Shown: piece after piece, positions 5,813 to 54,252 of the stretch
Layout of the letters: every line of letters starts with the position of its first letter
How positions within the stretch are numbered: position 1 is the stretch's first letter
Virus record (IMG/VR): IMGVR_UViG_3300009130_000005
Location: 1 to 64,000 of that record
DNA from: a virus
DNA length: 64,000 bases
Reading direction: 5' to 3' (one strand)
Notes under the pieces: generated by a model
What the model was told of the DNA's origin: nothing
The model's input: only the letters and a program-made list of their open reading frames with translations
Databases searched by the model: none
Position numbers and translations under genes: made by a program

Positions 5813-5821
5813 TTTTTTTTC

Positions 5822-5850
5822 TTGCAAATGGTCCCGATATGTGTTAATAT
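5822..5850 (+). promoter_or_regulatory. sigma70-like promoter of nrdB
   Basis: TTGCAA-17 nt-TAATAT. Confidence 0.5.
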
Positions 5851-5862
5851 CGTTATATAAAT

Positions 5863-11775: not shown

Positions 11776-13167
11776 ATGAAAATAGGATTCTGCTTCCTGC
11801 TTTATAAAGGAGTCACCCAACAAAAAGCTTGGCATAGGTTTTTTAAAAATGTAAAAGAAGAAGATTTTGGGATTTATTTCCACTCAAAGGAACCTAAAAA
11901 AGCCAATAGACAAAAACTACTTAAAGGTAAAGGCATACCATTTCAGATAAAAACTAACTGGGCAGACGTTAGCTTAGTAGAAGCTTCTATTGAATTATTT
12001 AGAGCGGCACTAAAAGACAATTGCGATTACGTGTTTTTACTTTCAGATAAGTGTGTGCCTATTCAGACCTTTAGTTTTATAAAATCTAACATATCAGATA
12101 ATTGTAGCATAATACATTATGGAATGAATGAGCCCCTATCAGGAACACAAAAAGGATACTTTGACAATAATGAAACCTCAAGAAGATACGAAGAATCAAA
12201 AAGCATAAAACATTATGTTAAAAAGAAAGACTTTATAAAGGCAGATCAATGGGTCGGATTAAACAGAGAACACGCAAGCTTACTAACAGAAAACGACCAC
12301 GCCCTCGAACACTTCAATGACGTTTTCGCCGCAGACGAACATTTTGTAGCGACAGTCCTTAATCAAAAAGGAAAATTAACAAACTGCAAAAACAAAAAAA
12401 TTACATTCACAGATTGGAGCTCAAAAAAAGAATGGAGGCACCCTAAAACATACTTCAAAGTAAGCTTTTCGGAATTTGGTTTAGCAAAAAGCTCTGGAGC
12501 ATTTTTCTTGAGGAAAATTCCTTGGATTTCAAATTTTAACATCATAAATAAATTTTATGGCAAATGTACTTTTCGCCTCCCAAGAGGCAAAAAGTATATA
12601 GCCTTTATTCATATACCAAAAAATGGTGGATGCAGTATAAAAAAATACCTTAAAAATGATGGAAGATTCCTAAAGCACCACCACCAAACAGCAAAAGAAA
12701 TAAAAAAACAATTAGGAGAAAACCTATGGAGGGAGACTTTTGTCTTTGCAACAGTAAGAAACCCTTGGTCAAGAGTAGTTTCTGCTTTTACATTCCTTCA
12801 GGCAGGAGGACTCCCTCAGTTTCAGGACAAAATAAAAGCAATTGAACTTGGGATAAAAAAAGACACAGACATTAACGAATGGATAAAAGAAAACAAAGAA
12901 AACTTTCTAAAAAGCGAACCCTTTGAGGGTACAGCAGGATGGATGCATTTCAAAAAACAAACTTCTTATATAAACGAAGACATAGATAAAATAATTAAAC
13001 TGGAAGACGAAGAACAAAAAAGAAAACTTTTTAAAAAAACAATTCCCGTCGAAAACAAATCAACAAAAAAAGATTCCAGACCCAAATTAAACAAAGAATC
13101 AAAAAAAATAATTAGCAAAGCCTACTCTCAAGACATAAAGGTTTTTGGCTACAGATTTCACGATTAA
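11776..13167 (+). CDS. GT14/core-2 branching-like glycosyltransferase fused to a sulfotransferase domain
   Basis: N-half TNWADVSLV, LLSDKCVPI, DQWVGL, DEHF, FLRK; C-half FIHIPKNGGCS and VRNPWSRVVS. Confidence 0.8.
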   Translation: MKIGFCFLLYKGVTQQKAWHRFFKNVKEEDFGIYFHSKEPKKANRQKLLKGKGIPFQIKTNWADVSLVEASIELFRAALKDNCDYVFLLSDKCVPIQTFSFIKSNISDNCSIIHYGMNEPLSGTQKGYFDNNETSRRYEESKSIKHYVKKKDFIKADQWVGLNREHASLLTENDHALEHFNDVFAADEHFVATVLNQKGKLTNCKNKKITFTDWSSKKEWRHPKTYFKVSFSEFGLAKSSGAFFLRKIPWISNFNIINKFYGKCTFRLPRGKKYIAFIHIPKNGGCSIKKYLKNDGRFLKHHHQTAKEIKKQLGENLWRETFVFATVRNPWSRVVSAFTFLQAGGLPQFQDKIKAIELGIKKDTDINEWIKENKENFLKSEPFEGTAGWMHFKKQTSYINEDIDKIIKLEDEEQKRKLFKKTIPVENKSTKKDSRPKLNKESKKIISKAYSQDIKVFGYRFHD

Positions 13168-15778: not shown

Positions 15779-16126
15779 ATGGATATACCCTTAATTAAAA
15801 CTGGACATTTCTTCGACACAACTGCCAATAACTACAAAGACTGGGTAGTAGGTCCGTTTGTAAAAGAAGAAGAATTTTGCACAAAAAATTTTGAACTTAA
15901 ATTTCAAAGAGGCGAACAGGGAACCATAAGAAAACCAAAAAAAGTCCTTAATCAAAACGTTCACACACTGGCAATAGCAGTGTATGGATGTATAAGGATG
16001 AATTTTGCTAAAGAAGATATATATTTAAAGGAAGAAGGGGACTATATATACTGGAGCCCAGACGCTCCACACGAATTTGAATTTCTAGAAGACTCGTTAG
16101 TAATAACATTGAGGTGGAAATCATGA
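15779..16126 (+). CDS. Cupin-like protein
   Basis: WVVGPF, LKEEGDYIYWSPDAPHEF; start moved to the ATG 11 nt after GTGTA. Confidence 0.7.
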   Translation: MDIPLIKTGHFFDTTANNYKDWVVGPFVKEEEFCTKNFELKFQRGEQGTIRKPKKVLNQNVHTLAIAVYGCIRMNFAKEDIYLKEEGDYIYWSPDAPHEFEFLEDSLVITLRWKS

Positions 16127-16746
16127 TAAGCCACAAACACAAATTTATATTCGTTCATATTCCAAAATGCGGAGGAACAACGATTGAAAAGTTTTTTCTA
16201 GATAAAGATGGCGTTGAGTGCGACTGGAGTCGTAACTCCCCATTAGGAAGTTTATCAGAAGAATCAAAAAAGAAATACAGACTTCAGCCTGGACAACACG
16301 CGCCATTTAATAGCTTCGAAAAAGAATTCAAGGAAAAATATTTTTCTTTTACATTTACCAGAAACCCTTGGTCAAAAATGGTAAGCGAATGGGCGTACTT
16401 CTATAAACAAAAAGACCCAATAACCTTTAAAGAGTTTATACAAAGAATGATAAGCCCAGAACACAACAACAAGCACCCTTATTCAGGGTGGCACTTCAAA
16501 AGCCAGCATATTTTTTCTGAAGGTTGCAAATTTATCGGAAGGTTTGAAAGCTTACAAAATGACTTTAATCACGTCTGTGATAATTTAAAAATACCTCGGC
16601 AAGAACTTCCTCACGAAAACAAAAGCAAACATAAGCATTACACCGAATACTATGATGACGAAACTCGTTCGATTGTTGCAGAAAAATGCGCAAAAGACAT
16701 TGAGTATTTTGGGTATGAATTTGGTGAACAACATAACCAGAAATGA
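16123..16746 (+). CDS. Sulfotransferase (Sulfotransfer_2-like)
   Basis: FVHIPKCGGTT (5'-PSB), RNPWSKMVS (3'-PB), IGRFE. Confidence 0.88.
   Translation: MISHKHKFIFVHIPKCGGTTIEKFFLDKDGVECDWSRNSPLGSLSEESKKKYRLQPGQHAPFNSFEKEFKEKYFSFTFTRNPWSKMVSEWAYFYKQKDPITFKEFIQRMISPEHNNKHPYSGWHFKSQHIFSEGCKFIGRFESLQNDFNHVCDNLKIPRQELPHENKSKHKHYTEYYDDETRSIVAEKCAKDIEYFGYEFGEQHNQK
16636..16728 (+). repeat. 93-nt sulfotransferase 3'-end repeat, copy 1 (others at 27974, 28553, 29181; diverged copy at 54163)
   Basis: Near-identical DNA encoding HYTEYYDDETRxIVAEKxAKDIEYFGYEFGE. Confidence 0.8.
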
Positions 16747-18241: not shown

Positions 18242-18247
18242 AAAAAT

Positions 18248-20927: not shown

Positions 20928-20929
20928 TC

Positions 20930-22075: not shown

Positions 22076-22079
22076 AAAC

Positions 22080-25735: not shown

Positions 25736-25746
25736 TATCATTAAGT

Positions 25747-27408
25747 ATGATTTCTGATAAAATCACAGTTGTCTATGCTACTAGTCCCCATAGATTTGGC
25801 GAGGAAGACTTAATGATAAATTTCTCAATAGAAAGCGTCAAGTCTTTTGGTCTTAAGGGTTGCGATATTATTATATGCGCAGACGGAATAAACCCAAATT
25901 CAAATTACGCCCGAAAAGAAGAGACAGAAAAATATAAAACCTATATTCAGAAATTGACGGACAGATATGGAGCAGACAATCTCTGCGTCTCAGATAAACA
26001 TATAGGCCTTACAAAAAACTACCTTCAGGCATGGGAACATAAAAAAATTAAAACAGAAAATGTCTTCTTCATGAATCATGATGTAGCCCTTTTGCCAACA
26101 TTTCTAGATCTAGACATAGAAGAAATAATCAATGACAGGCCAGACTTCGTGAACACTACAATATTTCCCAGAGATAGCTTTGACGCAGTTCCTGGAAAAA
26201 ACTGGTGGAGAGTCCAAGAGGTAAGCAAGCATCCGCTAAATAAACAATTTAAAAATGCTTGGGCAAAAGATTGCAAGATGGCCTTCGGCAACCAAGACCA
26301 CGGATGCATCATAAAAACCGACTTCTTTCAAGAATTTGTAAGCAGATTTTACGAGCCCAAAAAAACTTTCTTTCTTGAGGACTCTGTTCAGGATTACCTA
26401 AGAAAAATAGATAATGATGACTTTGAAAGTTGGGCCAAAGTAGGTGGTTGCGTATGGAAAGGGTCTTACACATTTCACCTTGATGGTCATAGTAAAGCTG
26501 GAGCGGAGCACAAACAAGAAAACAACAGAAAAGGAGAAAGTGTATGGAGTCCAGGAAATATTGTAACAAAAAATTTAAAATCAATAAAGACAAACAAAAA
26601 TTCCACAAAAGAACTTCTCGATACGCTACAAAAACTATTAGAGATTGAGAAAAAAGGTATTGCTATAAGAACCTACGAGAACTATAAAAAATTTGCATGG
26701 GATCTTTTTCACCTACATGCAATTAACCATACTCAAGGCGCAGGAATAGAAGAAAACTTAACACTAAATCCCACAACAAGCAAGGTCCCACTACCCCTAG
26801 AAGATGAAAACTATAAATTTAGCATCAATTACGGAATAGAAAGTTTTAAAATTTCATGGAAAAATCTGGAAAATGATAGGTTGATCCTAAACCTCAACGA
26901 GGGAAAAAGAAAAATTCGATGGGGAGGACACCAAAGAAATTGTATAAATTTATTCTACAAAGAAGAGGCTATATTTAGAAATTCGCTTATAAATCTAGAG
27001 GCGTTTAATTATTCCCAGGAAAGCAAACCCTCAATAGCTAAAGAAGACTTCGAAACAGCTCTGGTGTCCTCAGATAAAAAAGGTGGAATTTATATATCTT
27101 GGGAAAACCCTGAAGGCTTAGAGCTAAAAATGCATCTTAAGGATTCTTTTGGTAACATTCTAGAAGAACAGGCAAAAGAAGGTTTGTACAAATATAATGC
27201 AGCAAGCCTACTCCCAGCAGACTTTTTAATGGGGTGGTTTGACGTAAGTAGTAATAAAAATCAACTAGGTAAAACTTGGAATTTTATTATTGAAATAAAA
27301 GAGTACCTTTACTCTAACTTTAATCCAGTAGACCTGTGCTTATCTTGCTGCAGCGAAATAGAAAAAGCTTCTGGAGTTACCCAGCTTTTAAACCAAAAGG
27401 CCATATAA
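25747..27408 (+). CDS. GT-A-fold glycosyltransferase-like protein
   Basis: VVYATSP, IICADG, FFMNHD, FHLDG; start at the ATG 12 nt after GTGTA. Confidence 0.5.
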   Translation: MISDKITVVYATSPHRFGEEDLMINFSIESVKSFGLKGCDIIICADGINPNSNYARKEETEKYKTYIQKLTDRYGADNLCVSDKHIGLTKNYLQAWEHKKIKTENVFFMNHDVALLPTFLDLDIEEIINDRPDFVNTTIFPRDSFDAVPGKNWWRVQEVSKHPLNKQFKNAWAKDCKMAFGNQDHGCIIKTDFFQEFVSRFYEPKKTFFLEDSVQDYLRKIDNDDFESWAKVGGCVWKGSYTFHLDGHSKAGAEHKQENNRKGESVWSPGNIVTKNLKSIKTNKNSTKELLDTLQKLLEIEKKGIAIRTYENYKKFAWDLFHLHAINHTQGAGIEENLTLNPTTSKVPLPLEDENYKFSINYGIESFKISWKNLENDRLILNLNEGKRKIRWGGHQRNCINLFYKEEAIFRNSLINLEAFNYSQESKPSIAKEDFETALVSSDKKGGIYISWENPEGLELKMHLKDSFGNILEEQAKEGLYKYNAASLLPADFLMGWFDVSSNKNQLGKTWNFIIEIKEYLYSNFNPVDLCLSCCSEIEKASGVTQLLNQKAI

Positions 27409-27427
27409 ACTTTTTAAAATCGTTATC

Positions 27428-28069
27428 ATGATACTAGATAAGTGGAAAGCAATTTTTATACATATTCCAAGAACCGCAGGAGGAAGCACAGAAGTTGCTC
27501 TACTAAAAAAGTACTTTAAGAGGAATAGGGTTCCCTACAACCTAAAGGCTAGGCTAGACTTACTTACCCTAAATGAAGAATGGACACAGCATTATACAAT
27601 TCAAGAAACGATAGATGCGTTTAATATAAACCCCGAGGAATATTTTAAATTCTGCTTCACAAGAAACCCTTGGGATAAAGTTCTTAGCGAATACATGTAT
27701 ATTAAAAAAGAAAACGGGTGCCACTGCGCAAGAGAAGATGTCCCAAAGACTTTTAACGATTGGTGTGTAAACGGAATGCCATGCGCATACGAAAAACATC
27801 TTCAACCACAAATAGATTTTATTTTAGATGTAGATCAAAATTGCATAATGGACTTTGTTGGGAGTTATGAAAACCTAGAAAAAGATTTGCGGTTTATTTT
27901 TAATAAGTATAAAATAAAAGGCAAACCTCCCTACATGAACGAAACCAGAGATGCAGACTGCAAAAAAAAGAAGCACTACACCGAATACTACGATGACGAA
28001 ACTCGTCAAATCGTTGCGGAAAAATACGCAAAAGATATCGAGTACTTCGGGTATAAATTTGGAGAATAA
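27428..28069 (+). CDS. Sulfotransferase
   Basis: FIHIPRTAGGS, RNPWDKVLS. Confidence 0.88.
   Translation: MILDKWKAIFIHIPRTAGGSTEVALLKKYFKRNRVPYNLKARLDLLTLNEEWTQHYTIQETIDAFNINPEEYFKFCFTRNPWDKVLSEYMYIKKENGCHCAREDVPKTFNDWCVNGMPCAYEKHLQPQIDFILDVDQNCIMDFVGSYENLEKDLRFIFNKYKIKGKPPYMNETRDADCKKKKHYTEYYDDETRQIVAEKYAKDIEYFGYKFGE
27974..28066 (+). repeat. Sulfotransferase 3'-end repeat, copy 2
   Basis: First 32 nt identical to copy 4. Confidence 0.8.
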
Positions 28070-28072
28070 AAA

Positions 28073-28648
28073 ATGATAAACCACAAAGCTAATTTTATTT
28101 TTATTCATATTCCTAAAACAGGAGGAACATCAATCGAACAAGCCCTGCTGCGAGATAACCCCCTAAAATGGCAGTGGTGGAAAGCCAAGCATGAATACAT
28201 GTACCCCGACGTACTCAACAAAGTGGCAAAATGCAACGGGATTGAGAGTTACTTTTCATTTTCTTTCGTCAGAAATCCGTGGGACAAAATAGTATCGCAG
28301 TATCACTATAATCGAGACTGGTTTGGCATGGGGGATTATACATTTGACGAATATATTCGAGCGTTCAATAAAGGTAGAAAAATTTCTGCCAATAACCCCT
28401 ACCTTTTACCATGGATTACTGACAATAAAGGCAATGTGCTTGTGGATTTTATTGGAAGGTTTGAAAATCTTCAAGAAGATTTCGACACAGTTTGTGACAA
28501 AATAGGGACCAAACGACAACGCCTTCCCTATAAAAACAAAACAAAACACAAACACTACACCGAATACTACAATGATGAAACACGGGCTATTGTTGCAGAG
28601 AAATACGCAAAAGACATTGAATATTTCGGATATGAATTCGGAGAATAA
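28073..28648 (+). CDS. Sulfotransferase
   Basis: FIHIPKTGGTS, RNPWDKIVS, IGRFE. Confidence 0.9.
   Translation: MINHKANFIFIHIPKTGGTSIEQALLRDNPLKWQWWKAKHEYMYPDVLNKVAKCNGIESYFSFSFVRNPWDKIVSQYHYNRDWFGMGDYTFDEYIRAFNKGRKISANNPYLLPWITDNKGNVLVDFIGRFENLQEDFDTVCDKIGTKRQRLPYKNKTKHKHYTEYYNDETRAIVAEKYAKDIEYFGYEFGE
28553..28645 (+). repeat. Sulfotransferase 3'-end repeat, copy 3
   Basis: CACTACACCGAATACTAC...GAATTCGGAGAA. Confidence 0.8.
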
Positions 28649-28667
28649 ATTATGAACTTTATGAAAA

Positions 28668-29288
28668 ATGATAAATCATAAATATAAGTTTGTTTTCGTA
28701 TTGTTGCCAAAAACTGGCACAACAAGTATTCTTAATATGTTTAAAAATAACCACTATTTAAGTAAAGATACAATCGCGGGTACTGGAGCAGGACGACATT
28801 ATGATAAGTTGAGTGACGATGAATTAAATTATTTAAAAATAGCTACTTGCCGTAATCCATTTTCAAGAGTTGTTTCGCTGTGGAAATACTGGAACATGAG
28901 ACTGCGCTGGGAAAAAATCCCAACTGTAGGATTTTCGTACTTTGTAAAAAATTATACAAAGATGCAGAAAAAAATATGTCTTGCTTTTGATAAAATGACA
29001 GAAATACATTTCTATACCTGCGTTGATGGCATTACTTTATCTACGGGCGGTAGTTTATCTTGCACTGATATAGATCTTTGGATCAAAACTGAAAATCTTA
29101 AAAAAGATATTAATATTGCCTGCGACAAAATCGGAATTCCGCGAGACCAACCTCCACACAAAAACCAAACAAAACATAAACACTACACCGAATACTACGA
29201 TGACGAAACTCGCCAAATCGTTGCAAAGAAATACGCAAAAGACATTGAATACTTCGGATATGAATTCGGGGGATTAACAAATGAATAA
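28668..29288 (+). CDS. Sulfotransferase
   Basis: LPKTGTTS, RNPFSRVVS. Confidence 0.85.
   Translation: MINHKYKFVFVLLPKTGTTSILNMFKNNHYLSKDTIAGTGAGRHYDKLSDDELNYLKIATCRNPFSRVVSLWKYWNMRLRWEKIPTVGFSYFVKNYTKMQKKICLAFDKMTEIHFYTCVDGITLSTGGSLSCTDIDLWIKTENLKKDINIACDKIGIPRDQPPHKNQTKHKHYTEYYDDETRQIVAKKYAKDIEYFGYEFGGLTNE
29181..29273 (+). repeat. Sulfotransferase 3'-end repeat, copy 4
   Basis: Near-identical to copies 1-3. Confidence 0.8.
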
Positions 29289-30051
29289 TCAAATAAAAAT
29301 TGAGTACAACGGAATGAATTGCATACTGACAGATGCCGACGAACAATTTAATACGATTAAAGATCTCACGCTAAAAAGAATGGAAAAATCTAGACGGCTT
29401 AATGAAATTTTTTACTTACAAGCGTTAAGGGAAGAAGGTAAAGATTTTCAAGGAGAAAAAATTCCTGAGACCATAAAGTATTCCAACAACTCAAGACTGG
29501 CACAATACCCAAAGCTAGAAAAAACAATAGACTATTCTTTTGTTGGTCAAGTGCAATGCTATTGGGACGCATCCAGAATTTTGCCAATGAGACACTGGAT
29601 ACTTGAATACATAGAAAAATTTTTCACAAAAGACTCTTTTCTGCAATTCACAATCAACAAGGGAAGCAGAATGAGTAAAAAAAATAAAAAAGTATTATCA
29701 AAATTTAAAAACAAAGCCTACAATAAGAGCTCCCGTCCGATATTTAAAAAAATAGATAAAAGCCCAGAGAAATTAAACACCTACTTTGGTCCAGACGAAA
29801 AATATTTAGAAGTACTGGCTTCGAGTAAGTTTAGTCTTTGTCCAGGAGGAGACGCCCCTTGGAGCATTAGGTTCTACGAATCAATCGCCCTCGGGGCAAT
29901 CCCAATATTAAAAGACAAAAAAGAAGCTTTTTATTCAAACAATACATCAGGACCAAACTACAAATTCTATCTCAATACAGAAAAGCCGAAATATAAAAAG
30001 TCTTGGGCGAAGCACAATTTAGAACTATTTCAACAAGAACATTTAGTGTAA
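29281..30051 (+). CDS. Exostosin (GT47)-like glycosyltransferase
   Basis: SSKFSLCPGGDAPWSIRFYESIALGAIP. Confidence 0.8.
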   Translation: MNNQIKIEYNGMNCILTDADEQFNTIKDLTLKRMEKSRRLNEIFYLQALREEGKDFQGEKIPETIKYSNNSRLAQYPKLEKTIDYSFVGQVQCYWDASRILPMRHWILEYIEKFFTKDSFLQFTINKGSRMSKKNKKVLSKFKNKAYNKSSRPIFKKIDKSPEKLNTYFGPDEKYLEVLASSKFSLCPGGDAPWSIRFYESIALGAIPILKDKKEAFYSNNTSGPNYKFYLNTEKPKYKKSWAKHNLELFQQEHLV

Positions 30052-30059
30052 CTTAAAAG

Positions 30060-30908
30060 GTGAACGCAAAACAAAAAACAGACCAAGCAGCCAAATCAAT
30101 AGAAGATTTAGGATATGCAGTAATTAAAGATGTTTTTAGCGATAATCTTACAAGCGAATTCTTAAATAAACTAGAAGACATTCCAAAAAAGCGCATAGGT
30201 TACGGGGGAGTCAATATATGTCACACAAAATTCCTTCACACCTCTGAAAGCTTTATGAATATCTTAAGTAAAGACGAAATTTTCATGCTATCGCAAAGAA
30301 TTTGTGGAGATAGATGCAGGTTGGATCATGCTTTTTACCATGATTGTAAAAAAAACGAAGGCTTAAAAAAAGGAGAGTCATTAATCAACAAAAATATAGG
30401 CGCAGGAATTCATGGAGGAGTCAATTGTTGCTGGGGGATGAATTTTTATAGAAGCGGTTATCCAATCAATATAAATTTTCCAAGAACGAATAGATTAAAC
30501 TTTCATATTACCCTTACAGACACTGGACCCTTCAGAGGGGGACCTCAGCTAATACCATCAACACACATTGGAGATTATAATTACCCAATGTGCGGGGGAG
30601 ATAATGTTAAGGTAAAGGCAAACGGAGAGGCTGATGTAGATTTTAATAAAATGATCATACCTCAGTCAAGAAAAGGAGATGTAATAGTTTTTTTAGACTC
30701 TCTATTGCACGGAACTTCGTTCCACAGGTTCGAAAGAAGGAACTTGTACTTGATGGTAACATCTGCTTTTACATCAATGTACCCTTATAGTATGTTAAAC
30801 AAAGAAATAGCACATTTAGCAAAAAATGAGAGGCAAAAACAGATGCTTGCTGAACCATGCGCTGTACCACAAGACTCATTAAAGCGAACACTAGAATCAA
30901 TAAAATGA
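30060..30908 (+). CDS. PhyH-family 2OG-Fe(II) dioxygenase
   Basis: LGYAVIKDV, LTDTGP..GGPQLIPSTH, KGDVIVF...LLHG. Confidence 0.75.
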   Translation: MNAKQKTDQAAKSIEDLGYAVIKDVFSDNLTSEFLNKLEDIPKKRIGYGGVNICHTKFLHTSESFMNILSKDEIFMLSQRICGDRCRLDHAFYHDCKKNEGLKKGESLINKNIGAGIHGGVNCCWGMNFYRSGYPININFPRTNRLNFHITLTDTGPFRGGPQLIPSTHIGDYNYPMCGGDNVKVKANGEADVDFNKMIIPQSRKGDVIVFLDSLLHGTSFHRFERRNLYLMVTSAFTSMYPYSMLNKEIAHLAKNERQKQMLAEPCAVPQDSLKRTLESIK

Positions 30909-31534
30909 ATCAAACAAATTTATTATTAAATAACTATAAAATAAGAAACAGGATGGGGTGGACCGAAAAAGGTATGAGGTTTTTATTGAATAGTCTCGAG
31001 AAAACCTTAAAGCTTAAAATTAAGGGTGATATAGTTGAGATGGGGTGCAACAGAGGAGCGTCATCAGTTTTTATTAAAAGAATGCAAGAGATTTATGAAC
31101 CCCAAAAAAACTTTCATGTTTATGATTCCTTTGAAGGCATACCTCAACTGACGGATCAAGATAAAAGCACAGGAACTAAAATACGTCAAGGGCATTGCTG
31201 CAGGACAAAAGATGATTTCAAACAGACCTTTAAAGAAGAAAAAGTGAAACTCCCGTATATTCACGAAGGATGGTTTAAGGATATTTCAGACGATGAGTAC
31301 CCATCAAAAATTTGTTTTGCCTTTCTTGATGGAGATTTATATTCATCTATTACTGACAGTTTTGAGAAAATTGGCAACAAAATAACTCAGGGAGGTAGGA
31401 TAGTCGTGCATGACTGGTTAAACCCAAATCTCAAAAAAGGCGTAAGAAAGGCTTGTTATGAATTTCTAGAAGCAAACGCTTCGTTTGATTTGATTCTTAC
31501 GGATGAAAATATGGCGGTAATACATAGGAGTTAG
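30905..31534 (+). CDS. TylF/MycF-family sugar O-methyltransferase
   Basis: GDIVEMGCNRGAS, YDSFEG, GWFKD, LDGDLYSS. Confidence 0.88.
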   Translation: MNQTNLLLNNYKIRNRMGWTEKGMRFLLNSLEKTLKLKIKGDIVEMGCNRGASSVFIKRMQEIYEPQKNFHVYDSFEGIPQLTDQDKSTGTKIRQGHCCRTKDDFKQTFKEEKVKLPYIHEGWFKDISDDEYPSKICFAFLDGDLYSSITDSFEKIGNKITQGGRIVVHDWLNPNLKKGVRKACYEFLEANASFDLILTDENMAVIHRS

Positions 31535-35736: not shown

Positions 35737-35750
35737 GTGTAAAAATGAGT

Positions 35751-38201
35751 ATGGAACTAAAACCTAATTTCACGCCAAGAGCGCAAGAAGCAATTATTGG
35801 ATCAAGAACCATTGCGGAGAAATTCAACAAAAGAATGATTACAGAAAATCATTTATGCTTAAGCGTGGCGAGCACTCAAAGCATCAGCATAGCTGAGTTT
35901 TATGCGGCCTGCGGAATAGATCCTAAAAAAATTATAAAATTTATAAAAAGCAAACTTCAAAAAGGCCCTAAGCCACCAACAAACAAATCTTATTTTTCAA
36001 AGAAGTTTAAAGAAATACTCAACGGAGCAATCAAAGAAGCTCAAAAGTATGAACACGATTATGTTGGGGTAGAACACATCCTCCTATCTATTCTTGACAT
36101 GGAAAGCTCCTTGTTCTGTTTATTTTTAAGGTCAGAGGGTCTCGACTCTGATCAAGCAAAGCTAGCAATCAGGGCAAGATTTCTTGTTAGTGAGATGGAA
36201 AAAGAGCCATCGCGAGCCAGAGCAGAAAACATAATTCAATCTGAAGCTGCAACCATGTCGAACCCAAGCCAAAATGCGAACCTGTTAAAGTATTCCGTTA
36301 ACTTTAATTCCCTCGCGCAAGAGGGTAGATTTGATAATGTAATAGGAAGAGATCAAGAGATTAAAGATATGGCTGAAGTCCTATGCAGGAGATCAAAAAA
36401 CAACCCAATACTGCTAGGAGAACCTGGGGTAGGCAAAACTGCAGTTGTTGAAGGTCTAGCACAGGCAATAGTTGGTGGAAATGCTACAGATTTTCTTTTA
36501 AATAAAACAATATACTCTCTTGACCTTGCAGGAATGATCGCTGGAACAAAGTATAGAGGACAATTCGAGGAAAGATTAAAAAAAGTAATGGAAGAGATTG
36601 CAAATGATTCCACTGCAATTTTATTTATTGACGAAATACACACTTTAGTTGGAGCGGGAAGCGCAGAGGGAACTATGGATGCAGCAAACATACTCAAACC
36701 CTTGCTAGCGAGAGGAGAAATAATGTGTATTGGAGCTACAACAAGGGGTGAGTACAGAAAATCTATATTAAAAGATGGCGCCCTAGACAGAAGATTTCAA
36801 CCAATCTTAGTCGAAGAACCTTCGGAAGAAGAGTGCATTGAAATTCTAGAGGGTATAAAAGATAGGTATGAAAAGTTTCACGGGGTAGCTTATTCGAAAG
36901 AAGCATTAAGTAGAGCGGTTAAATTATCTAGTAGATACATTTTGGACAGACAACTTCCCGACAAAGCAATTGACCTTCTGGATCAAGCAGGATCCAAAGC
37001 GAAAATTAGAGGCTTCAAGAGGCCTCAGGAAGCAATTGCAATTGAACAAGAAATTACAGAGCTATATAAAAGTGAAGAAACTTCTAGTGAACCTCATATT
37101 GTAATCAGAAAAAGGGAAGAGTTACTAGAAAAGTATACCAAACTTATAGAAGACTGGGCAAACGAAGCGGTGAAAAAGAAAATTGACGTAGAAGAAGGTG
37201 ACATATATAAAGTTTTAACCCAAAAAACAGGAATCCCAACCGACGATCTTTCACAAACAGACAAAGATAGGGTATTAAAGTTACAACCAAACCTAAAAAA
37301 ATCAGTAATCGGCCAAGATGAAGCTGTCGAACAAATATGCAAATCAATTTTAAGAAATAAAGCTGGCTTAAACGATTCATCTCGACCCATTGGCTCCTTT
37401 TTATTCCTAGGGTCTAGTGGTGTAGGAAAAACTTATTTAGCAAAAAGGCTTTCAAGCCTTATGTTTGGGGGCGAAGACAACGTCATACAATTAGATATGT
37501 CTGAGTTCGGAGAAAAAGCCTCAACTTCTAAAATTTTAGGGTCTGCACCAGGCTATGTTGGCTACGAAGAAGGGGGTTCAATTATTGAAAAAATCAAAAA
37601 GAAACCTCATAGCGTTGTACTTTTTGATGAAATAGAAAAAGCTCACCCTGAAGTCACCAACTTATTACTTCAAATATTAGAAGAAGGAAAACTGACAGAT
37701 AGCTCAGGAAGACAGGCAAGCTTTCGCAATTGTATAATTATTATTACAGGCAATATCGGCTCTGGATTAACAAAGAAAACGAATCAAGTTGGCTTCGGCG
37801 CAAAAGATATCTCCAGCAAAGAAATCAAACAATCAATTATTGAAGAATCAAAGAAAATTTTAAAACCTGAATTAATAAATAGAATAGAATCGCCAATTAT
37901 ATTTAATAATTTTACAGAAAAAGAGCTTAAATTAATTGCTAACTTAGAACTGCAGTCCCTCGCACGAAGGGCAGAGGATAAAGCTGGCAAACTAAAATTC
38001 AATCCAAGCATAATAAACTATTTGTCAAAAAAAGCTTCAGCCATGAACGATGGAGCACGACCCATAAGGAAAATTATAAAAGACGAAATAGAAAACCCTC
38101 TTGCGGAATTACTAATGAAAGGAGACCTTGTGTCGGCAAATTTAACAACAGTTTCTTATTATAAAACCAAACAAGAGGTAAAATTCTCAATTAAAGAGTA
38201 A
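35751..38201 (+). CDS. clpC: ClpC/ClpA-family AAA+ unfoldase (alternative start 35745)
   Basis: Clp N-domain, GEPGVGKT, FIDEIH, LPDKAIDL, GSSGVGKT, PGYVGY, VGF ClpP-docking loop. Confidence 0.9.
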   Translation: MELKPNFTPRAQEAIIGSRTIAEKFNKRMITENHLCLSVASTQSISIAEFYAACGIDPKKIIKFIKSKLQKGPKPPTNKSYFSKKFKEILNGAIKEAQKYEHDYVGVEHILLSILDMESSLFCLFLRSEGLDSDQAKLAIRARFLVSEMEKEPSRARAENIIQSEAATMSNPSQNANLLKYSVNFNSLAQEGRFDNVIGRDQEIKDMAEVLCRRSKNNPILLGEPGVGKTAVVEGLAQAIVGGNATDFLLNKTIYSLDLAGMIAGTKYRGQFEERLKKVMEEIANDSTAILFIDEIHTLVGAGSAEGTMDAANILKPLLARGEIMCIGATTRGEYRKSILKDGALDRRFQPILVEEPSEEECIEILEGIKDRYEKFHGVAYSKEALSRAVKLSSRYILDRQLPDKAIDLLDQAGSKAKIRGFKRPQEAIAIEQEITELYKSEETSSEPHIVIRKREELLEKYTKLIEDWANEAVKKKIDVEEGDIYKVLTQKTGIPTDDLSQTDKDRVLKLQPNLKKSVIGQDEAVEQICKSILRNKAGLNDSSRPIGSFLFLGSSGVGKTYLAKRLSSLMFGGEDNVIQLDMSEFGEKASTSKILGSAPGYVGYEEGGSIIEKIKKKPHSVVLFDEIEKAHPEVTNLLLQILEEGKLTDSSGRQASFRNCIIIITGNIGSGLTKKTNQVGFGAKDISSKEIKQSIIEESKKILKPELINRIESPIIFNNFTEKELKLIANLELQSLARRAEDKAGKLKFNPSIINYLSKKASAMNDGARPIRKIIKDEIENPLAELLMKGDLVSANLTTVSYYKTKQEVKFSIKE

Positions 38202-38207
38202 AAAAAC

Positions 38208-38236
38208 TTGACTTTTGTCTATTTTTCGGGTAATCT
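38208..38236 (+). promoter_or_regulatory. sigma70-like promoter of tmRNA
   Basis: TTGACT-17 nt-TAATCT, followed by boxA-like AGATCTTTGAAAA. Confidence 0.6.
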
Positions 38237-38259
38237 ATAATAGATCTTTGAAAATTTAT

Positions 38260-38657
38260 GGGGGTGTTCTGGATTCGACTGATGTTGGATTCCTGCACCG
38301 CAAGTCGGAGATGCACTTGGCTTCGATACAAATGTGCAAAGCTTTACATGGCGCTAAAAACCGTGTTAGAGCCCTCGGTCTTAAGAACCGTCTCGCTGCA
38401 AAGCGTTTCGGCTTCAAGAGCCGTAAGCTCGCCTTAGCAGCTTAACCTGCTAACCTCTTACCTTTTGACGCAGATAAGGAGGATAAGGGGTCATCGATCT
38501 GCAAAACAGAAAAGGTTTACCTGTTAATAAACTGTAAATAATTGTAACAGGAAGTTCGATGTTAGTATCAACAACTCAAAAAGAAACTAACTAAACTTGT
38601 AGACGTGCTTGATTGAAGGCACTCAGGACGCGGGTTCAACTCCCGCCACCTCCACCA
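38260..38657 (+). ncRNA. ssrA: tmRNA
   Basis: GGGGGTG/CACCTCC acceptor stem with G3:U, GGATTCGAC, T-arm GCGGGTTCAACTCCCGC, ACCA end, pk1 (TGCAC/GTGCA + GCTT/AAGC), tag frame ending LALAA-stop. Confidence 0.95.
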
Positions 38658-38669
38658 TTTTTATTTTAT

Positions 38670-39473
38670 TTATTTATTTATTGGTAAAACAAAATGAGGC
38701 GAAGATACAATAAAAAATGGGTTCAATAAATTTTCTTTGTTATATTGCATTTTTTTTCCTAAGTTTTCTCCTTCGGCAATGTATACAGCTGCTCCACTTT
38801 CCTCAGCTATTACCTGCGGGGCACCAGTATCCCATTCCATCGTCGGACCAAACCTTGGGTAGACATCAGCAGCTCCTTCAGCAATAATACAAAACTTAAG
38901 AGAGCTTCCAATATTTAAAGTTTCTACTTGGTATTGACGCTCGACTTTTTCTATGAAATTTGCGGTAGCCTCATTCATATGAGACTTGCTGGCGACAATT
39001 TTAATTTTTTTTCCATATGGATTGATAGAATATTTTGAATAGATTCTTTCTTTATTCTTAAAAGCGCCACAACCCTTTATTGCATGGTATTGGTCTTGCT
39101 TTTTTGGGCAAGCGACATAGCCAAAGATTGGCTCGTGACCCTTACATAAAGCTATATTAACGCAGAAGTCATCCCCTCCTTTTATAAATTCCTTCGTGCC
39201 ATCAATTGGATCTATTAGCCAATAATAATCCCATTTAGAACGCTCTTCAAAAGGAACTTGCTTATCTTCTTCGGATATTATATTTTTTATATCGGAATGC
39301 TTCTCCAAAAAATTTCTTATTCTTCCATTAGAATGAATGTCAGCAATAGTTAGAGGGCTTTGATCTTCCTTATATGAAACAGCACCTTTTTGACCTTGAA
39401 TAGCCACAATCTCTTCAGAAAGTTCTTTTCCAAATTCATGAAGAGAGTCAATAAAAGACTCAGTTATATCCAT
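38670..39473 (-). CDS. cysQ: 3'(2'),5'-bisphosphate (PAP) nucleotidase
   Basis: KEDQSPLTIAD, ISEE, WLIDPIDGTKEF, GSSLKFC, YPRFGPTMEWDT. Confidence 0.92.
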   Translation of the reverse strand: MDITESFIDSLHEFGKELSEEIVAIQGQKGAVSYKEDQSPLTIADIHSNGRIRNFLEKHSDIKNIISEEDKQVPFEERSKWDYYWLIDPIDGTKEFIKGGDDFCVNIALCKGHEPIFGYVACPKKQDQYHAIKGCGAFKNKERIYSKYSINPYGKKIKIVASKSHMNEATANFIEKVERQYQVETLNIGSSLKFCIIAEGAADVYPRFGPTMEWDTGAPQVIAEESGAAVYIAEGENLGKKMQYNKENLLNPFFIVSSPHFVLPINK

Positions 39474-39475
39474 TA

Positions 39476-40303
39476 TTACTCTGGTCGTTTGCCTAAAGGC
39501 TTACCATCTTGCCCAATTTCGCCTGCTCGTATTTTTGTAGCAGATACGGATTGTAATTCCTTACTAAGTTCAAGTTGTTCAATATTATAACCAACTCCTC
39601 TGCCGTAAAAGACATCGGTAATGTTAGGAAGCTCTACGACTTTTATTTTATCACCGAATTCTACGCAAGCCGCATGAATTTCAGCTTTAACTTTTTCAAA
39701 ATCATAAGGGTTTGAATCGTCTATCCCAGCAACATCTCTTAAGGCTATACAGCATTGACCGCTACGTTTAATAGATTCCGCTACCAAAGTTTTATGACCA
39801 ACATGAAATGGCTGATACCTTCCAATTAATAAGGCTGTTGGAGCTTGATTATCCCATTTTTCTGTTTTGTATATATTTTTCAATGCTATTTCGCACCACT
39901 CATCAGGAGTACCTTCCCTTAAAATAAGGTCGTGTTCGTCCCATCTTTTATCTTTGGTTGGGTCTTCGAATAATTTATTCGTATCTTCATATCTTCCTTC
40001 TTTAATTCTGTCTACCCATATAACAAAGTCAGGATTAAAAAGTTTTCGAGCCTCTTCTGTTGGGCAACAAAAGTCAGAGATTACATAACCTCCTCCAAGT
40101 TTTGCCCAATCAGCAAGTTTCCCCATTCTTCTGGCATGCTCATTTCTGTCGTCTTCAGAGAATCCAAGATCTTTATGAATTTCTTGACGAACTGCGTCAG
40201 CATTATACCACACGGCGTTTAATCTAGGAACAAGCTTTTCAGCAAGCGTTGTCTTTCCAGAACCTGGAAGACCCATGATAAGTATTTTTCTTTTAGGTTT
40301 CAT
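39476..40303 (-). CDS. Adenylylsulfate kinase-like domain fused to an HxGH nucleotidyltransferase
   Basis: GLPGSGKTT, NADAVR, DLGFSEDDR (CysC-like); GRYQPFHVGH...SATKIR; start at MKPKRK, 9 nt after ATGTA. Confidence 0.82.
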   Translation of the reverse strand: MKPKRKILIMGLPGSGKTTLAEKLVPRLNAVWYNADAVRQEIHKDLGFSEDDRNEHARRMGKLADWAKLGGGYVISDFCCPTEEARKLFNPDFVIWVDRIKEGRYEDTNKLFEDPTKDKRWDEHDLILREGTPDEWCEIALKNIYKTEKWDNQAPTALLIGRYQPFHVGHKTLVAESIKRSGQCCIALRDVAGIDDSNPYDFEKVKAEIHAACVEFGDKIKVVELPNITDVFYGRGVGYNIEQLELSKELQSVSATKIRAGEIGQDGKPLGKRPE

Positions 40304-40433
40304 GCTACTATATACATTAAAATTTTTCAAAAAGGAACTGTAAAAAGTCGCTTGAGCAGAAAAAAAATAAAAACGAAAATCAAACAACAGTGGACGATAT
40401 ACAAAACAACCCTATTTGTTTTTGAAAAATAAC

Positions 40434-40462
40434 TTGACAAATTAATACATATATGGTAAAGT
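40434..40462 (+). promoter_or_regulatory. sigma70 promoter
   Basis: TTGACA-17 nt-TAAAGT, preceded by TGG. Confidence 0.7.
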
Positions 40463-40471
40463 ATATACATA

Positions 40472-41008
40472 ATGAATTTACTAGAGAAAACAAAAACTTA
40501 CCTCGTAGGACATATGCAATATGTTAGCGGAAGAAATTGGAGGGAAGAAGTTACTGATCAATTAAAGCCTCTAAGCATTACTTGTTTTGATCCTTACAAA
40601 AAACCATTCATGAAAGATGTCGAAGAAGACGAAGCATCTAGACAAGAAATGGAGACTTGGATGAAGACAAAGCAGTACGACAGAGTGACAGAAAGAATGA
40701 AGACAGTTAGGGCATATGATCTAAACTTGGTAGATAGAAGCGACTTTATTGTTGCGCACCTTGTGCCTGATGTAGCCTCTTGGGGTAGCGCAGAGGAAAT
40801 TGTCACGGCAGTGAGAATGAAGAAGCCTGTGTTTGTCAGTATGGAAGGTGGAAAATCAAAGACTCCACTATGGATGCTAGGAATGTTTCCTCATAAATAT
40901 ATTTATAATAGTCTTGACGAAATCATCGAAATGTTGTATGCTATAGACAGTGGAAATAAACCGATAGACTCCGATAGATGGAGGCTTCTTAGAAAAGAAT
41001 TTAGATAA
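40472..41008 (+). CDS. Nucleoside 2-deoxyribosyltransferase-like protein
   Basis: YLVGHM, WREEV, FDP, DLNLVDRSD, GSAEE, KKPV. Confidence 0.65.
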   Translation: MNLLEKTKTYLVGHMQYVSGRNWREEVTDQLKPLSITCFDPYKKPFMKDVEEDEASRQEMETWMKTKQYDRVTERMKTVRAYDLNLVDRSDFIVAHLVPDVASWGSAEEIVTAVRMKKPVFVSMEGGKSKTPLWMLGMFPHKYIYNSLDEIIEMLYAIDSGNKPIDSDRWRLLRKEFR

Positions 41009-47347: not shown

Positions 47348-47706
47348 GCCCAACAACAATATCTTTAATTATTGCAGTCATTGTTTTAGTTGCATTGGCG
47401 ATAAACCTTAATGTCAGACTAAAAAAACTTACAGAAAAACAAAAGAAAGATCTGTCTCAAAGAAAAAGCAGAGAAGTTTTATTTGGACAGTCTGCAGAAA
47501 AAATTGCCCCTTTTCTAGATGAGTTTGGATTTGACCCAAGAGACTCTCAGTTCTTAGGCCAACCAATTGATTATGTAGTTTTCGACGAAGAAGAAGTTTG
47601 TTTTGTTGAAATAAAAACTGGCCAAGCTCGACTAACTACAAAACAAAGAAGAATAAAAAAACTCATAGAAAACAAGAAAGTTTCTTGGAAAGAATTAAGG
47701 ATATGA
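47344..47706 (+). CDS. Holliday-junction-resolvase-like endonuclease (Endonuc_Holl) with N-terminal TM helix; start uncertain
   Basis: GQSAEKIAPF, FLGQPIDYVVF, FVEIKTG, QRRIK; frame open from 47341. Confidence 0.75.
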   Translation: MSPTTISLIIAVIVLVALAINLNVRLKKLTEKQKKDLSQRKSREVLFGQSAEKIAPFLDEFGFDPRDSQFLGQPIDYVVFDEEEVCFVEIKTGQARLTTKQRRIKKLIENKKVSWKELRI

Positions 47707-48290
47707 TTAGTCATGAGCGCAAGTGCATATTTATACATATCCCCAGATGCGGAGGAAGCTCCATGGAACTTGCTCTCGAGGGAAAATCTGCATTTAATCG
47801 CAAAGAAAAGCATCTTATAGCAACAACAGCAAAAAGAATATACAAAGATTATTGGGATGATTATTTTAAATTCTCTTTTATAAGAGACCCTTGGGATAGG
47901 ACAGTTTCATTGTCAAGATGGCCATGGTTTTATGGGTGCAGAGTTAGAAAAGGAAAACTATTAATAAAAGGTTTAAAAAACCTAATAATAGACCCAAGAT
48001 CCAAGAGCAGATTTGACAGAAAAAAACTAAAATTTAAAAAAAACGCAGTCTATTTAAATATCCTTAACGAAGAAATTGACTTTATAGGTAGGTTTGAAAA
48101 TCTACAAGAAGACTGGTTGTACGTCTGCAAGCAAATAGGCTTAGAGCAAAAACCTTTAGGTAATATAAAAAAGTACAAAACCAAATTGAAATATCCACAC
48201 AGGAGCTACTATACTACAGAAACAAAAAATATTGTACAACAAATACACCAAGAAGATATAAATTATTTTAATTATAAATTTGAATATTAA
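47703..48290 (+). CDS. Sulfotransferase
   Basis: FIHIPRCGGSS, RDPWDRTVS, IGRFE. Confidence 0.87.
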   Translation: MISHERKCIFIHIPRCGGSSMELALEGKSAFNRKEKHLIATTAKRIYKDYWDDYFKFSFIRDPWDRTVSLSRWPWFYGCRVRKGKLLIKGLKNLIIDPRSKSRFDRKKLKFKKNAVYLNILNEEIDFIGRFENLQEDWLYVCKQIGLEQKPLGNIKKYKTKLKYPHRSYYTTETKNIVQQIHQEDINYFNYKFEY

Positions 48291-50524: not shown

Positions 50525-50975
50525 TATTATATTTAAAATTTTTTTGCAAAACAAATCATATTCAGAAGTATATGCCCTAGATGTAAATTTTCTTAATGCG
50601 TGGAATAATCTAGTTAATACAGAAAGTTACGACAACTATAAAAATTGCTCTATCTATTTGGTTGAGATTGAGGATGACCTAGAAGATCCTCCTGAGCAAA
50701 TCGTAGATGTTTGCCTAATAGATTCCGCCGAAGATGCGCTTCAGGCTTTAGATTTTTTATCTTGGGGAGAAATAATTGACTTGGATATTAAAAATTCCAC
50801 CGACCTTTCGGATAAGGAATGCTTGGCATACATTCTTTGGGAAATCACTTTCTGGGGCTTTAGCGACAGTTCGATTGCAGAACAAAAAGCTAAGTTAAAA
50901 AAGTCTCAAAAAGACTGGGAGCGGGTTGAAAAAGAGCTCAAGGATTTATATAATCCAAGAGATGAATCTTTATAA
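50475..50975 (+). CDS. Hypothetical acidic protein
   Basis: LDFLSWGE, ILWEITFWGF. Confidence 0.65.
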   Translation: MTLRQALRKYNYKTVFNIIFKIFLQNKSYSEVYALDVNFLNAWNNLVNTESYDNYKNCSIYLVEIEDDLEDPPEQIVDVCLIDSAEDALQALDFLSWGEIIDLDIKNSTDLSDKECLAYILWEITFWGFSDSSIAEQKAKLKKSQKDWERVEKELKDLYNPRDESL

Positions 50976-51459
50976 AATCCCAACTCACAAGAATTGTCCC
51001 AAAAAAGTTTACGCAGTAGTCGAGATTCCTAAAGGCACCAGCGCAAAATACGAGTATGACCCAGAAATAGGAGTCTTTTTTTATGACAGAAGCCTGCTAA
51101 GTGCAATGACATACCCTGCGAGTTATGGTTTTATCCCAATGACTAAAGCAGAAGATGGAGATGCGCTTGATATTTTAGTTTATAATGCAGTACCCATCGC
51201 AAGAGGTACGGTTGTTGAATGCTTAGTATTAGGAGTGCTAGATATGAATGACGATGGAGAAAAAGATTACAAAATACTTGGCGTCCCTACATCACACGTT
51301 CGATCATATGAAAGCCTTGATGATATTGACCCGCTTTTCTTAGAGGTATCTAAAAACTTTTTCCAACACTACAAAGACCTAAATGGTAAAGATGTCGAAA
51401 TACTTAACTGGCACGACAAACATACTGCAAGAAAAATTATAAATGAAAACTTAATATAA
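50962..51459 (+). CDS. ppa: Family I inorganic pyrophosphatase
   Basis: EIPKG, KYEYD, YPASYGFIP, DGDALD, DYKILGVP, FFQHYK. Confidence 0.93.
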   Translation: MNLYKIPTHKNCPKKVYAVVEIPKGTSAKYEYDPEIGVFFYDRSLLSAMTYPASYGFIPMTKAEDGDALDILVYNAVPIARGTVVECLVLGVLDMNDDGEKDYKILGVPTSHVRSYESLDDIDPLFLEVSKNFFQHYKDLNGKDVEILNWHDKHTARKIINENLI

Positions 51460-53640: not shown

Positions 53641-54252
53641 ATGATAGATCATCAGTATAAATGCATTTTTATTCATATTAACAAATGCGGAGGAACAACC
53701 TTAGATAGATTATTTAAGGCAAACGCTCGTGGACACAAATCCATTCTATCATACCAAAAGGCTTACCCAAAAAAATTTGACTCTTATTTTAAATTTTCTT
53801 TTACGAGAAATCCATGGGACAAAATGGTGTCGTTTTACCATTACCATGTCAGAAGAGGGTGGCCTTTTAACTGGGATTGGAATAAGAATAACGCCCCTAA
53901 CTTTGAAGATTTCATTAAAATAATTCACACTTATTCAGAAGAAAAAGAAAAAAAGATATGGCCGAAGAAACAGATTCGAAAGCATAAGACAACAACTATG
54001 CGCATGAGTAATCATTTAGATTGGCTGTGTAGTGATAGTGGAGAGATATTAGTTGACTTTATAGGCAAATTAGAGAATTTTCAATCAGATTTCGATCAAG
54101 TCTGCGACAAAATAGGAATGCCAAGGCGAAATCTACCGCACAAAAACAAAAGCAAACACAAGCATTATAGAACTTACTACAACGATGAAACGATTCAAAT
54201 CGTTGCAGAACGATTCTCAAAAGATATTGATTATTTTGGATATCAATTTTAA
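53641..54252 (+). CDS. Sulfotransferase
   Basis: FIHINKCGGTT, RNPWDKMVS, IGKLE. Confidence 0.88.
   Translation: MIDHQYKCIFIHINKCGGTTLDRLFKANARGHKSILSYQKAYPKKFDSYFKFSFTRNPWDKMVSFYHYHVRRGWPFNWDWNKNNAPNFEDFIKIIHTYSEEKEKKIWPKKQIRKHKTTTMRMSNHLDWLCSDSGEILVDFIGKLENFQSDFDQVCDKIGMPRRNLPHKNKSKHKHYRTYYNDETIQIVAERFSKDIDYFGYQF

Follow-up and report, generated by a model that had tools for sequence, protein, structure and literature searches.

The closest described counterparts of the gene studied here are the metazoan 3'-phosphoadenosine 5'-phosphosulfate (PAPS) synthases (PAPSS1/2; 1x6v, 1xjq), in which a single chain of ~620 amino acids (aa) carries an N-terminal adenosine 5'-phosphosulfate (APS) kinase followed by a C-terminal sulfate-activating nucleotidyltransferase (NTase) of the Sat family. 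The Sat-APS kinase fusions of fungi and bacteria (1m8p, 2gks, 3cr8; ~550–570 aa) likewise join sulfate activation, in one chain, to APS phosphorylation or to a kinase-like regulatory domain, but the sulfurylase comes first and both domains are canonical and full-size. In our study, a gene with the metazoan domain order was analysed in a DNA stretch of 64,000 nucleotides (the window), which comprises positions 1 to 64,000 of the IMG/VR record IMGVR_UViG_3300009130_000005, a 116-kb contig of a large uncultured marine phage with a CheckV completeness of 76%. The gene encodes only 275 aa. Its kinase half was structurally similar to that of the metazoan enzymes but was devoid of the lid half, and its NTase half, unlike theirs, gave no match to PF01747, the Sat family. 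The gene is probably a one-gene miniature PAPS synthase that contains a new class of sulfate adenylyltransferase and would, like the metazoan enzymes, convert sulfate to PAPS overall. The gene and its two domains were located as follows, the second line and the third line being the parts of the first.

39476..40303, minus strand: fusion gene, kinase then NTase, 275 aa plus stop (phrog_10255; AlphaFold2 (AF2) model)
39863..40303, minus strand: truncated APS-kinase-like P-loop kinase, residues 1–147 (PF01583; Foldseek)
39479..39862, minus strand: minimal HxGH nucleotidyltransferase, a putative sulfate adenylyltransferase, residues 148–275 (conservation; AF2 model)

In the explanation that we propose, the C-terminal HxGH NTase of ~120 aa would adenylylate sulfate (ATP + sulfate -> APS + pyrophosphate (PPi)), and the N-terminal trimmed APS kinase would form PAPS by phosphorylating APS at its 3'-OH. 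The pyrophosphatase of the phage may pull the sulfurylase step forward, nine or more phage sulfotransferases would consume the PAPS, and CysQ would clear the inhibitory 3'-phosphoadenosine 5'-phosphate (PAP). The NTase itself would be a minimal domain resembling NadM and phosphopantetheine adenylyltransferase (PPAT), which may have lost the segment that holds a large substrate and acquired R189 and R235, two arginines invariant in the family, as the likely site of a small anion. In SAR11 cells, a standalone NTase in the apr operon would run backward during sulfite oxidation (APS + PPi -> ATP + sulfate).

The kinase and nucleotidyltransferase domains

The open reading frame (ORF) extended on the minus strand from an ATG at 40303 to a stop codon at 39476–39478. 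The initial annotation had described an APS kinase fused to a minimal HxGH NTase, and each part of this description was verified, namely the ORF, the match to PF01583 and the motifs GRYQPFHVGH (residues 161–170) and SATKIR (residues 254–259); the NTase also contained YGRGVGY. The phage family phrog_10255, annotated as 'kinase', spanned residues 6–260 of the fusion (E 2.1e-51), and the fusion is not a chance juxtaposition, because this family matches across both domains. The AF2 model of the fusion, with 47 homologues as input, had a mean predicted local distance difference test (pLDDT) score of 93.0 and a predicted TM score (pTM) of 0.77.

The kinase domain contained the P-loop GLPGSGKT. Residues 7–87 matched PF01583 (APS_kinase) with E 1.1e-12 and 48.7 bits (cut-off 21.1), along profile positions 5–90 of 152 only, and also matched the solved APS kinases 3cr7/1d6j (E 3e-7). 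The top Foldseek matches of the AF2 model were all APS kinases (1d6j, 2ofw, 1m7g; E ~1e-7, TM score to the target 0.6–0.7). HMMER alignment to 1d6j placed D36, R39, F48 and R53 opposite D63, R66, F75 and R80, which we take to be the residues that bind APS and its 3'-OH. R39 was invariant among the 47 fused homologues, with D36, F48 and R53 at least 90% conserved, and all four were invariant in 15 kinase-only sequences. In place of the canonical lid half, the domain contained a short conserved stretch, G-R-(F/Y)-x-D-T-N-x-x-F-x-x-P.

The conservation of the NTase was determined from 78 viral and 73 cellular domain sequences, 151 distinct ones in all. The nucleotides of the gene encode residues G161, R162, Q164, P165, H167, G169 and H170, followed by R189, P199, P226, N227, Y233, G234, R235, V237, G238, Y239, S254, A255, T256 and R259, all of which were invariant or nearly so in the family. 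The best relatives by sequence and fold were the NadM-type and archaeal nicotinamide mononucleotide (NMN) adenylyltransferases (NMNATs; 1f9a, 2qjt, 2qjo, 1ej2), which have GRxQPFHxGH, an NP motif after strand 2 and a terminal S-x-T-x-I-R in common with the NTase. They differ in length (164–168 aa, against 128 aa in the NTase), and the middle segment of the NMNATs is missing from the NTase, which is ~40 residues shorter. Unlike NadM, the NTase family contained an invariant R189 and the YGRxVGY motif with R235, so that two additional invariant arginines were present, and its gene contexts were sulfur-related and not NAD-related. We infer that R189 and R235 would suit a small anionic substrate.

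Sat (PF01747; 1v47, 1j70 and eight SAR11 Sat proteins) belongs to the same HxGH/HxxH superfamily. Both proteins contain an HxGH motif, and two further motifs of the NTase may have counterparts in Sat, namely YGR(D/G)VGY in the G-R-D-like loop that reads VGRDHAG in Sat, and a C-terminal S-x-T-x-x-R-like motif. Unlike the NTase of ~120 aa, Sat contains ~340–400 aa or more with extra domains, and the spacing from HxGH to GRD was 86–93 residues in Sat and 67 residues in the NTase. Sat genes often lie beside aprBA, and in some SAR11 genomes the NTase takes that position.

Several results at the level of the domains weigh against a sulfate-activating role. A profile of 35 NTase sequences found NadM 2qjt as its best solved match (E 3.9e-9), then 1f9a (E 2.1e-8), followed by NadR and PPAT, and no ATP sulfurylase was present among its matches to solved proteins at E ≤ 10. 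In VIA structure comparison, the Z scores of NMNAT 1f9a (10.7), NadM 2qjt (10.1) and PPAT 4nah (10.0) were higher than those of Sat 1v47 (7.9; 119 residues aligned, root-mean-square deviation 3.7) and yeast Sat 1r6x (6.5). In a Foldseek search with the NTase domain model (pLDDT 88.8), Sat was not among the matches listed (ranks to 50). PF01747 had 0 matches at E ≤ 1 over the whole record, and hhalign against the eight SAR11 Sat proteins aligned 22 columns around HxGH with a probability of 8%; these proteins contained HxGH and VGRDHAG, and no NTase motif besides HxGH was aligned. The kinase, without its lid half, scored 45.5 bits on TIGR00455, far under the cut-off of 138.7.

The NTase is outside the Sat family, because it is closest by sequence and fold to NadM-type NMNAT and PPAT. 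The initial annotation had judged the motif to be nearer to NadM and the cytidylyltransferases than to Sat, and the profile, Foldseek, VIA and hhalign all agreed with it; the comparison of Sat with NMNAT that it had suggested ranked NMNAT above Sat. As judged by sequence, the kinase is likewise APS-kinase-like and not a canonical CysC, because the lid half is replaced and the score falls far below the NCBIfam cut-offs. We propose that the NTase represents a new enzyme family, belonging to the HxGH superfamily, which would catalyse a known reaction. No prior description of such a fusion or NTase was found in the literature, supplementary files aside.

The likeness to NadM could also mean that the fusion is an NAD enzyme that restores phage NAD, either nicotinamide riboside kinase (RNK) and NMNAT fused as in NadR but in reversed order, or an NMNAT joined to a nucleotide kinase. 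The nearest sequences and folds are those of NadM-type NMNATs, the GRxQPFHxGH motif is itself NadM-type, and in two Casjensviridae, Xylella phage Bacata and Stenotrophomonas phage Bhz60, a NADAR-domain gene has its end overlapped by the fusion (5559-6735 in both L001 and L002). The C-terminal part, however, matched the NadM-type models weakly (NF003786, E 2e-7 and 30.5 bits with a cut-off of 397; NF002243, 22 bits with a cut-off of 127; TIGR01527, 20.1 bits with a cut-off of 181.2), and the NCBIfam NMNAT scores overall were 20–30 bits against cut-offs of 127–418. The NTase profile aligned to the NMNATs across positions 7–70 of 121 only. Its second half was not significant, and the unaligned half of the NMNATs is presumably their NMN-holding part. 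In the VIA alignment 110 of the 164 residues of 1f9a were aligned, and ~40 residues of the NMNAT fold were missing from the NTase. The kinase is APS-kinase-like and not RNK-like, Nampt/NAPRTase was not found above cut-off in the phage record, and of the 15 genomes that were tested for canonical NadD, NTase-bearing or not, 13 contained it. Moreover, 37 of the 201 Pelagibacterales genomes lacked the NTase, which is dispensable in them, and the NTase tracked AprB. On this evidence, an NAD enzyme is highly improbable.

The nucleotidyltransferase in SAR11, SAR86 and other cells

The cellular context gave the strongest evidence for the sulfate/APS reading. The phage NTase domain was ~50–53% identical to SAR11 NTases, and the SAR11 arrangement was usually two abutting genes, with a fused form in 11 of 80 loci. 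Three SAR11 genomes (G181, G129 and G171) contained, on one strand, the order NTase-aprM-aprB-aprA-116aa-TauE, in which the gene at the aprM position encoded 263 aa without a Pfam match and the final gene encoded a TauE/SafE exporter. One paper places aprM always before aprBA in this Apr lineage, Pelagibacter included (PMC2211403). In 7 genomes, the coordinates placed the NTase and aprB on one strand, ~1.1 kb apart. A search of these 7 genomes found no mini-kinase in 6, and the NTase is therefore tied to APS reductase by itself. The apr-linked NTase was 78% identical to the kinase-linked SAR11 NTase, and in four other genomes the pair of kinase and NTase was convergent with aprBA.

The co-distribution of these genes was examined in 201 Pelagibacterales genomes at least 80% complete, among them incomplete single-amplified genomes (SAGs) and metagenome-assembled genomes (MAGs) and the unpublished genome G101. 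The NTase was found in 164 genomes and AprB in 165, whereas only 8 contained Sat. NTase and AprB occurred together in 154 genomes and neither in 26, with 10 and 11 discordant genomes (odds ratio 36); the weight of these counts is lessened in that they are raw, uncorrected for phylogeny, and come from genomes whose completeness may be as low as 80%. Of the 158 genomes that contained AprB and were devoid of Sat, 148 contained the NTase. The count of 8 Sat in 201 agrees with the published sulfurylase gap in SAR11, as a preprint describes most SAR11 as lacking ATP sulfurylase despite AprAB (bioRxiv 10.1101/2022.09.23.509140).

Among 21 NTase-bearing genomes from several lineages, Sat was found in 1, CysD in 2 and a Sulfotransfer_2 or Sulfotransfer_3 match in 15. 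One of them, a complete SAR86 chromosome, contained the gene pair together with two sulfotransferases that matched strongly, at 161 and 149 bits; Sat, CysD and PAPS_reduct had 0 matches on it. The gene upstream of the kinase and NTase pair in SAR86 belonged to PF03601, a family that NCBI names as a putative sulfate exporter. In a Flavobacteriaceae MAG the NTase was preceded by a full-length APS kinase (97 bits). The chromosomal carriers found in our study were Pelagibacteraceae, SAR86, soil Alphaproteobacteria and this Flavobacteriaceae MAG, and no neighbours were strongly shared between distant cellular lineages.

From these contexts we lean towards the view that the NadM-like domain of ~120 aa forms, alongside Sat and CysDN, a third and hitherto overlooked type of ATP sulfurylase and is the 'missing Sat' of most SAR11 and SAR86. 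It would serve AprBA-linked sulfite oxidation and, together with the mini-kinase, the supply of PAPS to sulfotransferases, and its fused form would have been captured by large marine phages for a self-contained cycle of glycan sulfation. The inference of a minimal ATP sulfurylase in the initial annotation gained comparative support from the sulfotransferases, the pyrophosphatase, three complete relatives devoid of Sat and CysD, the apr operon and the co-distribution with AprB where Sat is missing.

Other contexts fit this view less well. The NTase was also present in 6 of the 8 Sat-containing genomes, and the pattern is therefore not one of clean replacement. The commonest SAR11 locus contained genes of glycine-betaine catabolism, enoyl-CoA hydratase and CoA-binding genes, and not sulfur genes. 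A protein consisting of the pyruvate-kinase barrel only (PF00224, 205.7 bits) adjoined the NTase in the Flavobacteriaceae MAG (L158 1716-2720), and a homologue of it, encoded by a 326-aa gene, was found upstream of the fused form in a SAR11 SAG (L143); these neighbours hint at other substrates. Two fusion-bearing Casjensviridae phages were searched for sulfotransferases, and none was found in either. The sulfotransferase-fold genes of the SAR11 clusters described below belong here too, since their presence in such a cluster means that enzymes of this kind might use PAPS analogues.

The coenzyme A (CoA) genes bear on another alternative, in which only the kinase acts, on APS supplied by the host, and the NTase is another APS-handling enzyme or an unrelated one (an APS:phosphate adenylyltransferase, or a PPAT-like enzyme in a CoA-synthase-like pair). 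PPAT was a near-tie by fold (4nah, as given above), the pair was followed by enoyl-CoA hydratase genes in 39 of 80 cellular loci and by CoA-binding genes in 36 of 80, and 3',5'-ADP is a product of phosphopantetheinyl transfer too. These loci, however, were mostly those of closely related SAR11, and synteny among close relatives is weak evidence of a link to CoA. The PPAT matches of the NTase profile were marginal (E 0.013 and worse), and the position in the apr operon suits a Sat-like role. The likely hosts would also offer no obvious source of APS from sulfate, because they mostly lack Sat and CysD. We consider this alternative very unlikely.

The surface-polysaccharide loci bear on a third alternative, that the pair makes a PAPS-like donor, 3'-phospho-NDP-X, in which X is not sulfate. 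A small molecule that carries a phosphate would be linked by the NTase to a nucleotide, and the 3'-phosphate would come from the kinase. Campylobacter jejuni Cj1416/Cj1415 is a precedent, in which a cytidylyltransferase and a cytidine diphosphoramidate 3'-kinase, that is, a nucleotidyltransferase and an APS-kinase homologue, give a 3'-phosphorylated PAPS-like donor, a 3'-phospho-CDP-amidate, for surface glycans. The cellular family was often found in surface-polysaccharide loci (glycosyltransferase family 2 (GT2), carbamoyltransferase, ABC exporter, epimerase and TPR-GT9), and the adjoining pyruvate-kinase-barrel genes of L158 and L143 keep the alternative alive for part of the family. Two SAR11 clusters, L166 (G001:C2:16000-23173) and L167 (G007:C6:24000-37000), resembled the O-methyl-phosphoramidate (MeOPN) pathway of Campylobacter. 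They paired a full-length APS-kinase homologue with a CTP_transf_3 cytidylyltransferase, and contained a 775-aa PPDK_N/PEP-utilizer protein (a kinase resembling pyruvate phosphate dikinase, PPDK), a Peptidase_C26 glutamine amidotransferase (GATase), a methyltransferase and two sulfotransferase-fold genes.

The MeOPN-like clusters, however, rely on CTP_transf_3 and full-length kinases, which are other families, and PPDK-like and GATase matches numbered 0 among the ~25 window ORFs that were Pfam-scanned, the remaining record not having been scanned for them. The standalone NTase in the aprM-aprBA-TauE operon and the co-distribution with AprB tie the NTase to APS itself. A PAPS-analogue donor is thus unlikely, and neither it nor the NAD and CoA readings accounts for the position in the apr operon.

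Sulfation genes and other neighbours in phages

The phage encoded further genes of predicted sulfation, of which the following were located in the window.

38670..39473, minus strand: CysQ-like 3'(2'),5'-bisphosphate nucleotidase (PF00459 154.9 bits; TIGR01331 219.3 bits)
16114..16746, plus strand: Sulfotransfer_2 sulfotransferase (PF03567 70.1 bits; IPKCGGT and RNPWxxxxS motifs)
27428-28069, plus strand: Sulfotransfer_2, tandem 1 of 3 (PF03567 51.4 bits; R-N-P-(W/F)-x4-S)
28073-28648, plus strand: Sulfotransfer_2, tandem 2 of 3 (PF03567 55.6 bits; R-N-P-(W/F)-x4-S)
28668-29288, plus strand: Sulfotransfer_2, tandem 3 of 3 (PF03567 45.1 bits; R-N-P-(W/F)-x4-S)
47685..48290, plus strand: sulfotransferase paralogue (local hidden Markov model (HMM) only, E 2.4e-59)
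53641..54252, plus strand: sulfotransferase paralogue (local HMM, E 7.8e-68)
11776..13167, plus strand: 463-aa protein with a sulfotransferase-like domain (local HMM, E 5.6e-48)
50926..51459, plus strand: inorganic pyrophosphatase (PF00719 161.8 bits, E 7.6e-49, at 51013-51450)

Four ORFs exceeded the Pfam cut-off of Sulfotransfer_2, with 45–70 bits. A local HMM, built from the phage's own paralogues, found 9 strong sulfotransferase paralogues and 2 weaker ones in the 116-kb record, and the R-(N/D/H)-P-x5-S motif, which is the 3'-phosphate-binding motif of PAPS-dependent sulfotransferases, was present in all 9 strong paralogues. Sulfotransfer_1 and Sulfotransfer_3 were not found above cut-off in the record. 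The four Sulfotransfer_2 genes were part of a large island of glycan-building and glycan-decorating genes on the plus strand (16114-31534), which also contained Galactosyl_T-, GT2/GT92- and GT47-like glycosyltransferases, a polysaccharide pyruvyl transferase, a PhyH-like dioxygenase and a TylF-type O-methyltransferase.

The absence of cysD, cysN and sat, noted at first for the window, extended to the whole 116-kb record, where the CysD/CysH family (PF01507, PAPS_reduct) had 0 matches and PF01747, as stated, had none. From its genes, the phage is thus predicted to encode PAPS consumers, a PAP phosphatase, a pyrophosphatase and an APS-kinase-like domain, and for the first step no candidate other than the fused NTase was present. 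Sat was not found in the records of five fusion-bearing relatives (0/5), three CheckV-100% genomes among them, and the PAPS_reduct family was likewise found in 0/5. Two of the three complete relatives were searched for Sulfotransfer_2 and contained 7 and 10 matches. Of 83 phage loci, 13 contained sulfotransferase-like genes no more than 8 kb from the fusion.

The adjacency of cysQ held as first described: the CysQ-like gene lies on the same strand, and its ATG is 2 nt past the stop of the fusion. Its score on TIGR01331 was slightly below the cut-off of 228.8. The use of this adjacency as an argument for a sulfurylase is weak, and as a conserved link it was rejected, a CysQ homologue being found within 8 kb in 0 of 81 other phage loci. 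Inositol_P was present in the record of one of the five relatives, ~9 kb from the fusion.

The family was large, with 6193 of 8000 scored candidates significant and 2794 among representatives at 50% identity (E ≤ 1e-3). The two domains were found fused or as adjacent kinase and NTase genes, across phages and bacteria. Cultured-phage records matched numbered 16, of which 12 matched over at least 80% of the length, including the Xylella phages Sano and Salvo and Stenotrophomonas phage DLP_6. In marine genomes and metagenomes the gene is currently labelled 'cytidyltransferase', 'kinase' or 'Kti12'. The mini-kinase was joined to a DUF4118 membrane domain, in either order, in 7 of 10 odd-length representatives scanned (P0122, P0217, P0201, P0239, P0206, P0190 and P0253), which suggests that some forms act at the membrane.

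The commonest phage neighbour was a two-helix membrane protein of DUF2061, directly downstream in 45 of 82 loci (e.g. L025 4578-4790), and no DUF2061 gene was found in the record studied. Of 49 longer DUF2061 proteins, 4 were fusions with the APS-kinase family, and all others consisted of tandem DUF2061. One paper places a DUF2061 gene together with nodH, nodP and nodQ in a nod locus. The DUF2061 neighbourhood is suggestive and is uninformative on the substrate.

Two further features were located next to the fusion and cysQ.

38260-38657, plus strand: tmRNA (Rfam RF00023, 132.1 bits, full-length model)
40472-41008, plus strand: nucleoside 2-deoxyribosyltransferase-like neighbour, divergent (PF15891, 33.8 bits)

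The tmRNA was found just downstream of a ClpC-like ATPase gene (35745-38201) and convergent with cysQ; unlike Rfam, ARAGORN did not report it on the 38100–38800 slice. The divergent neighbour had a homologue only at L004 among the related phage loci, with 87% identity. A scan of 38300–40600 for promoters and terminators gave 7 promoter-like sites, with 6.9 expected, and 0 terminators, and was thus uninformative. Other genes of the record encoded Pol III alpha, the ClpC-like ATPase, dUTPase, dCMP deaminase and a GMP-reductase-like protein.

Meaning for phages and marine bacteria

The claim of a miniature PAPS synthase is open to direct test by standard assays. If it is true, the fusion would be the smallest known PAPS synthase, and at 275 aa it would be practical for PAPS regeneration in enzymatic sulfation. 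Phages could then hold a complete sulfation cycle, which comprises donor synthesis, transfer and the removal of PAP. The SAR11 are among the most abundant cells of the ocean, in which APS reductase is present and a recognisable ATP sulfurylase is mostly lacking. An overlooked tiny enzyme would close this gap, and would change the reading of sulfite and organosulfur oxidation and of sulfation in marine genomes and metagenomes.

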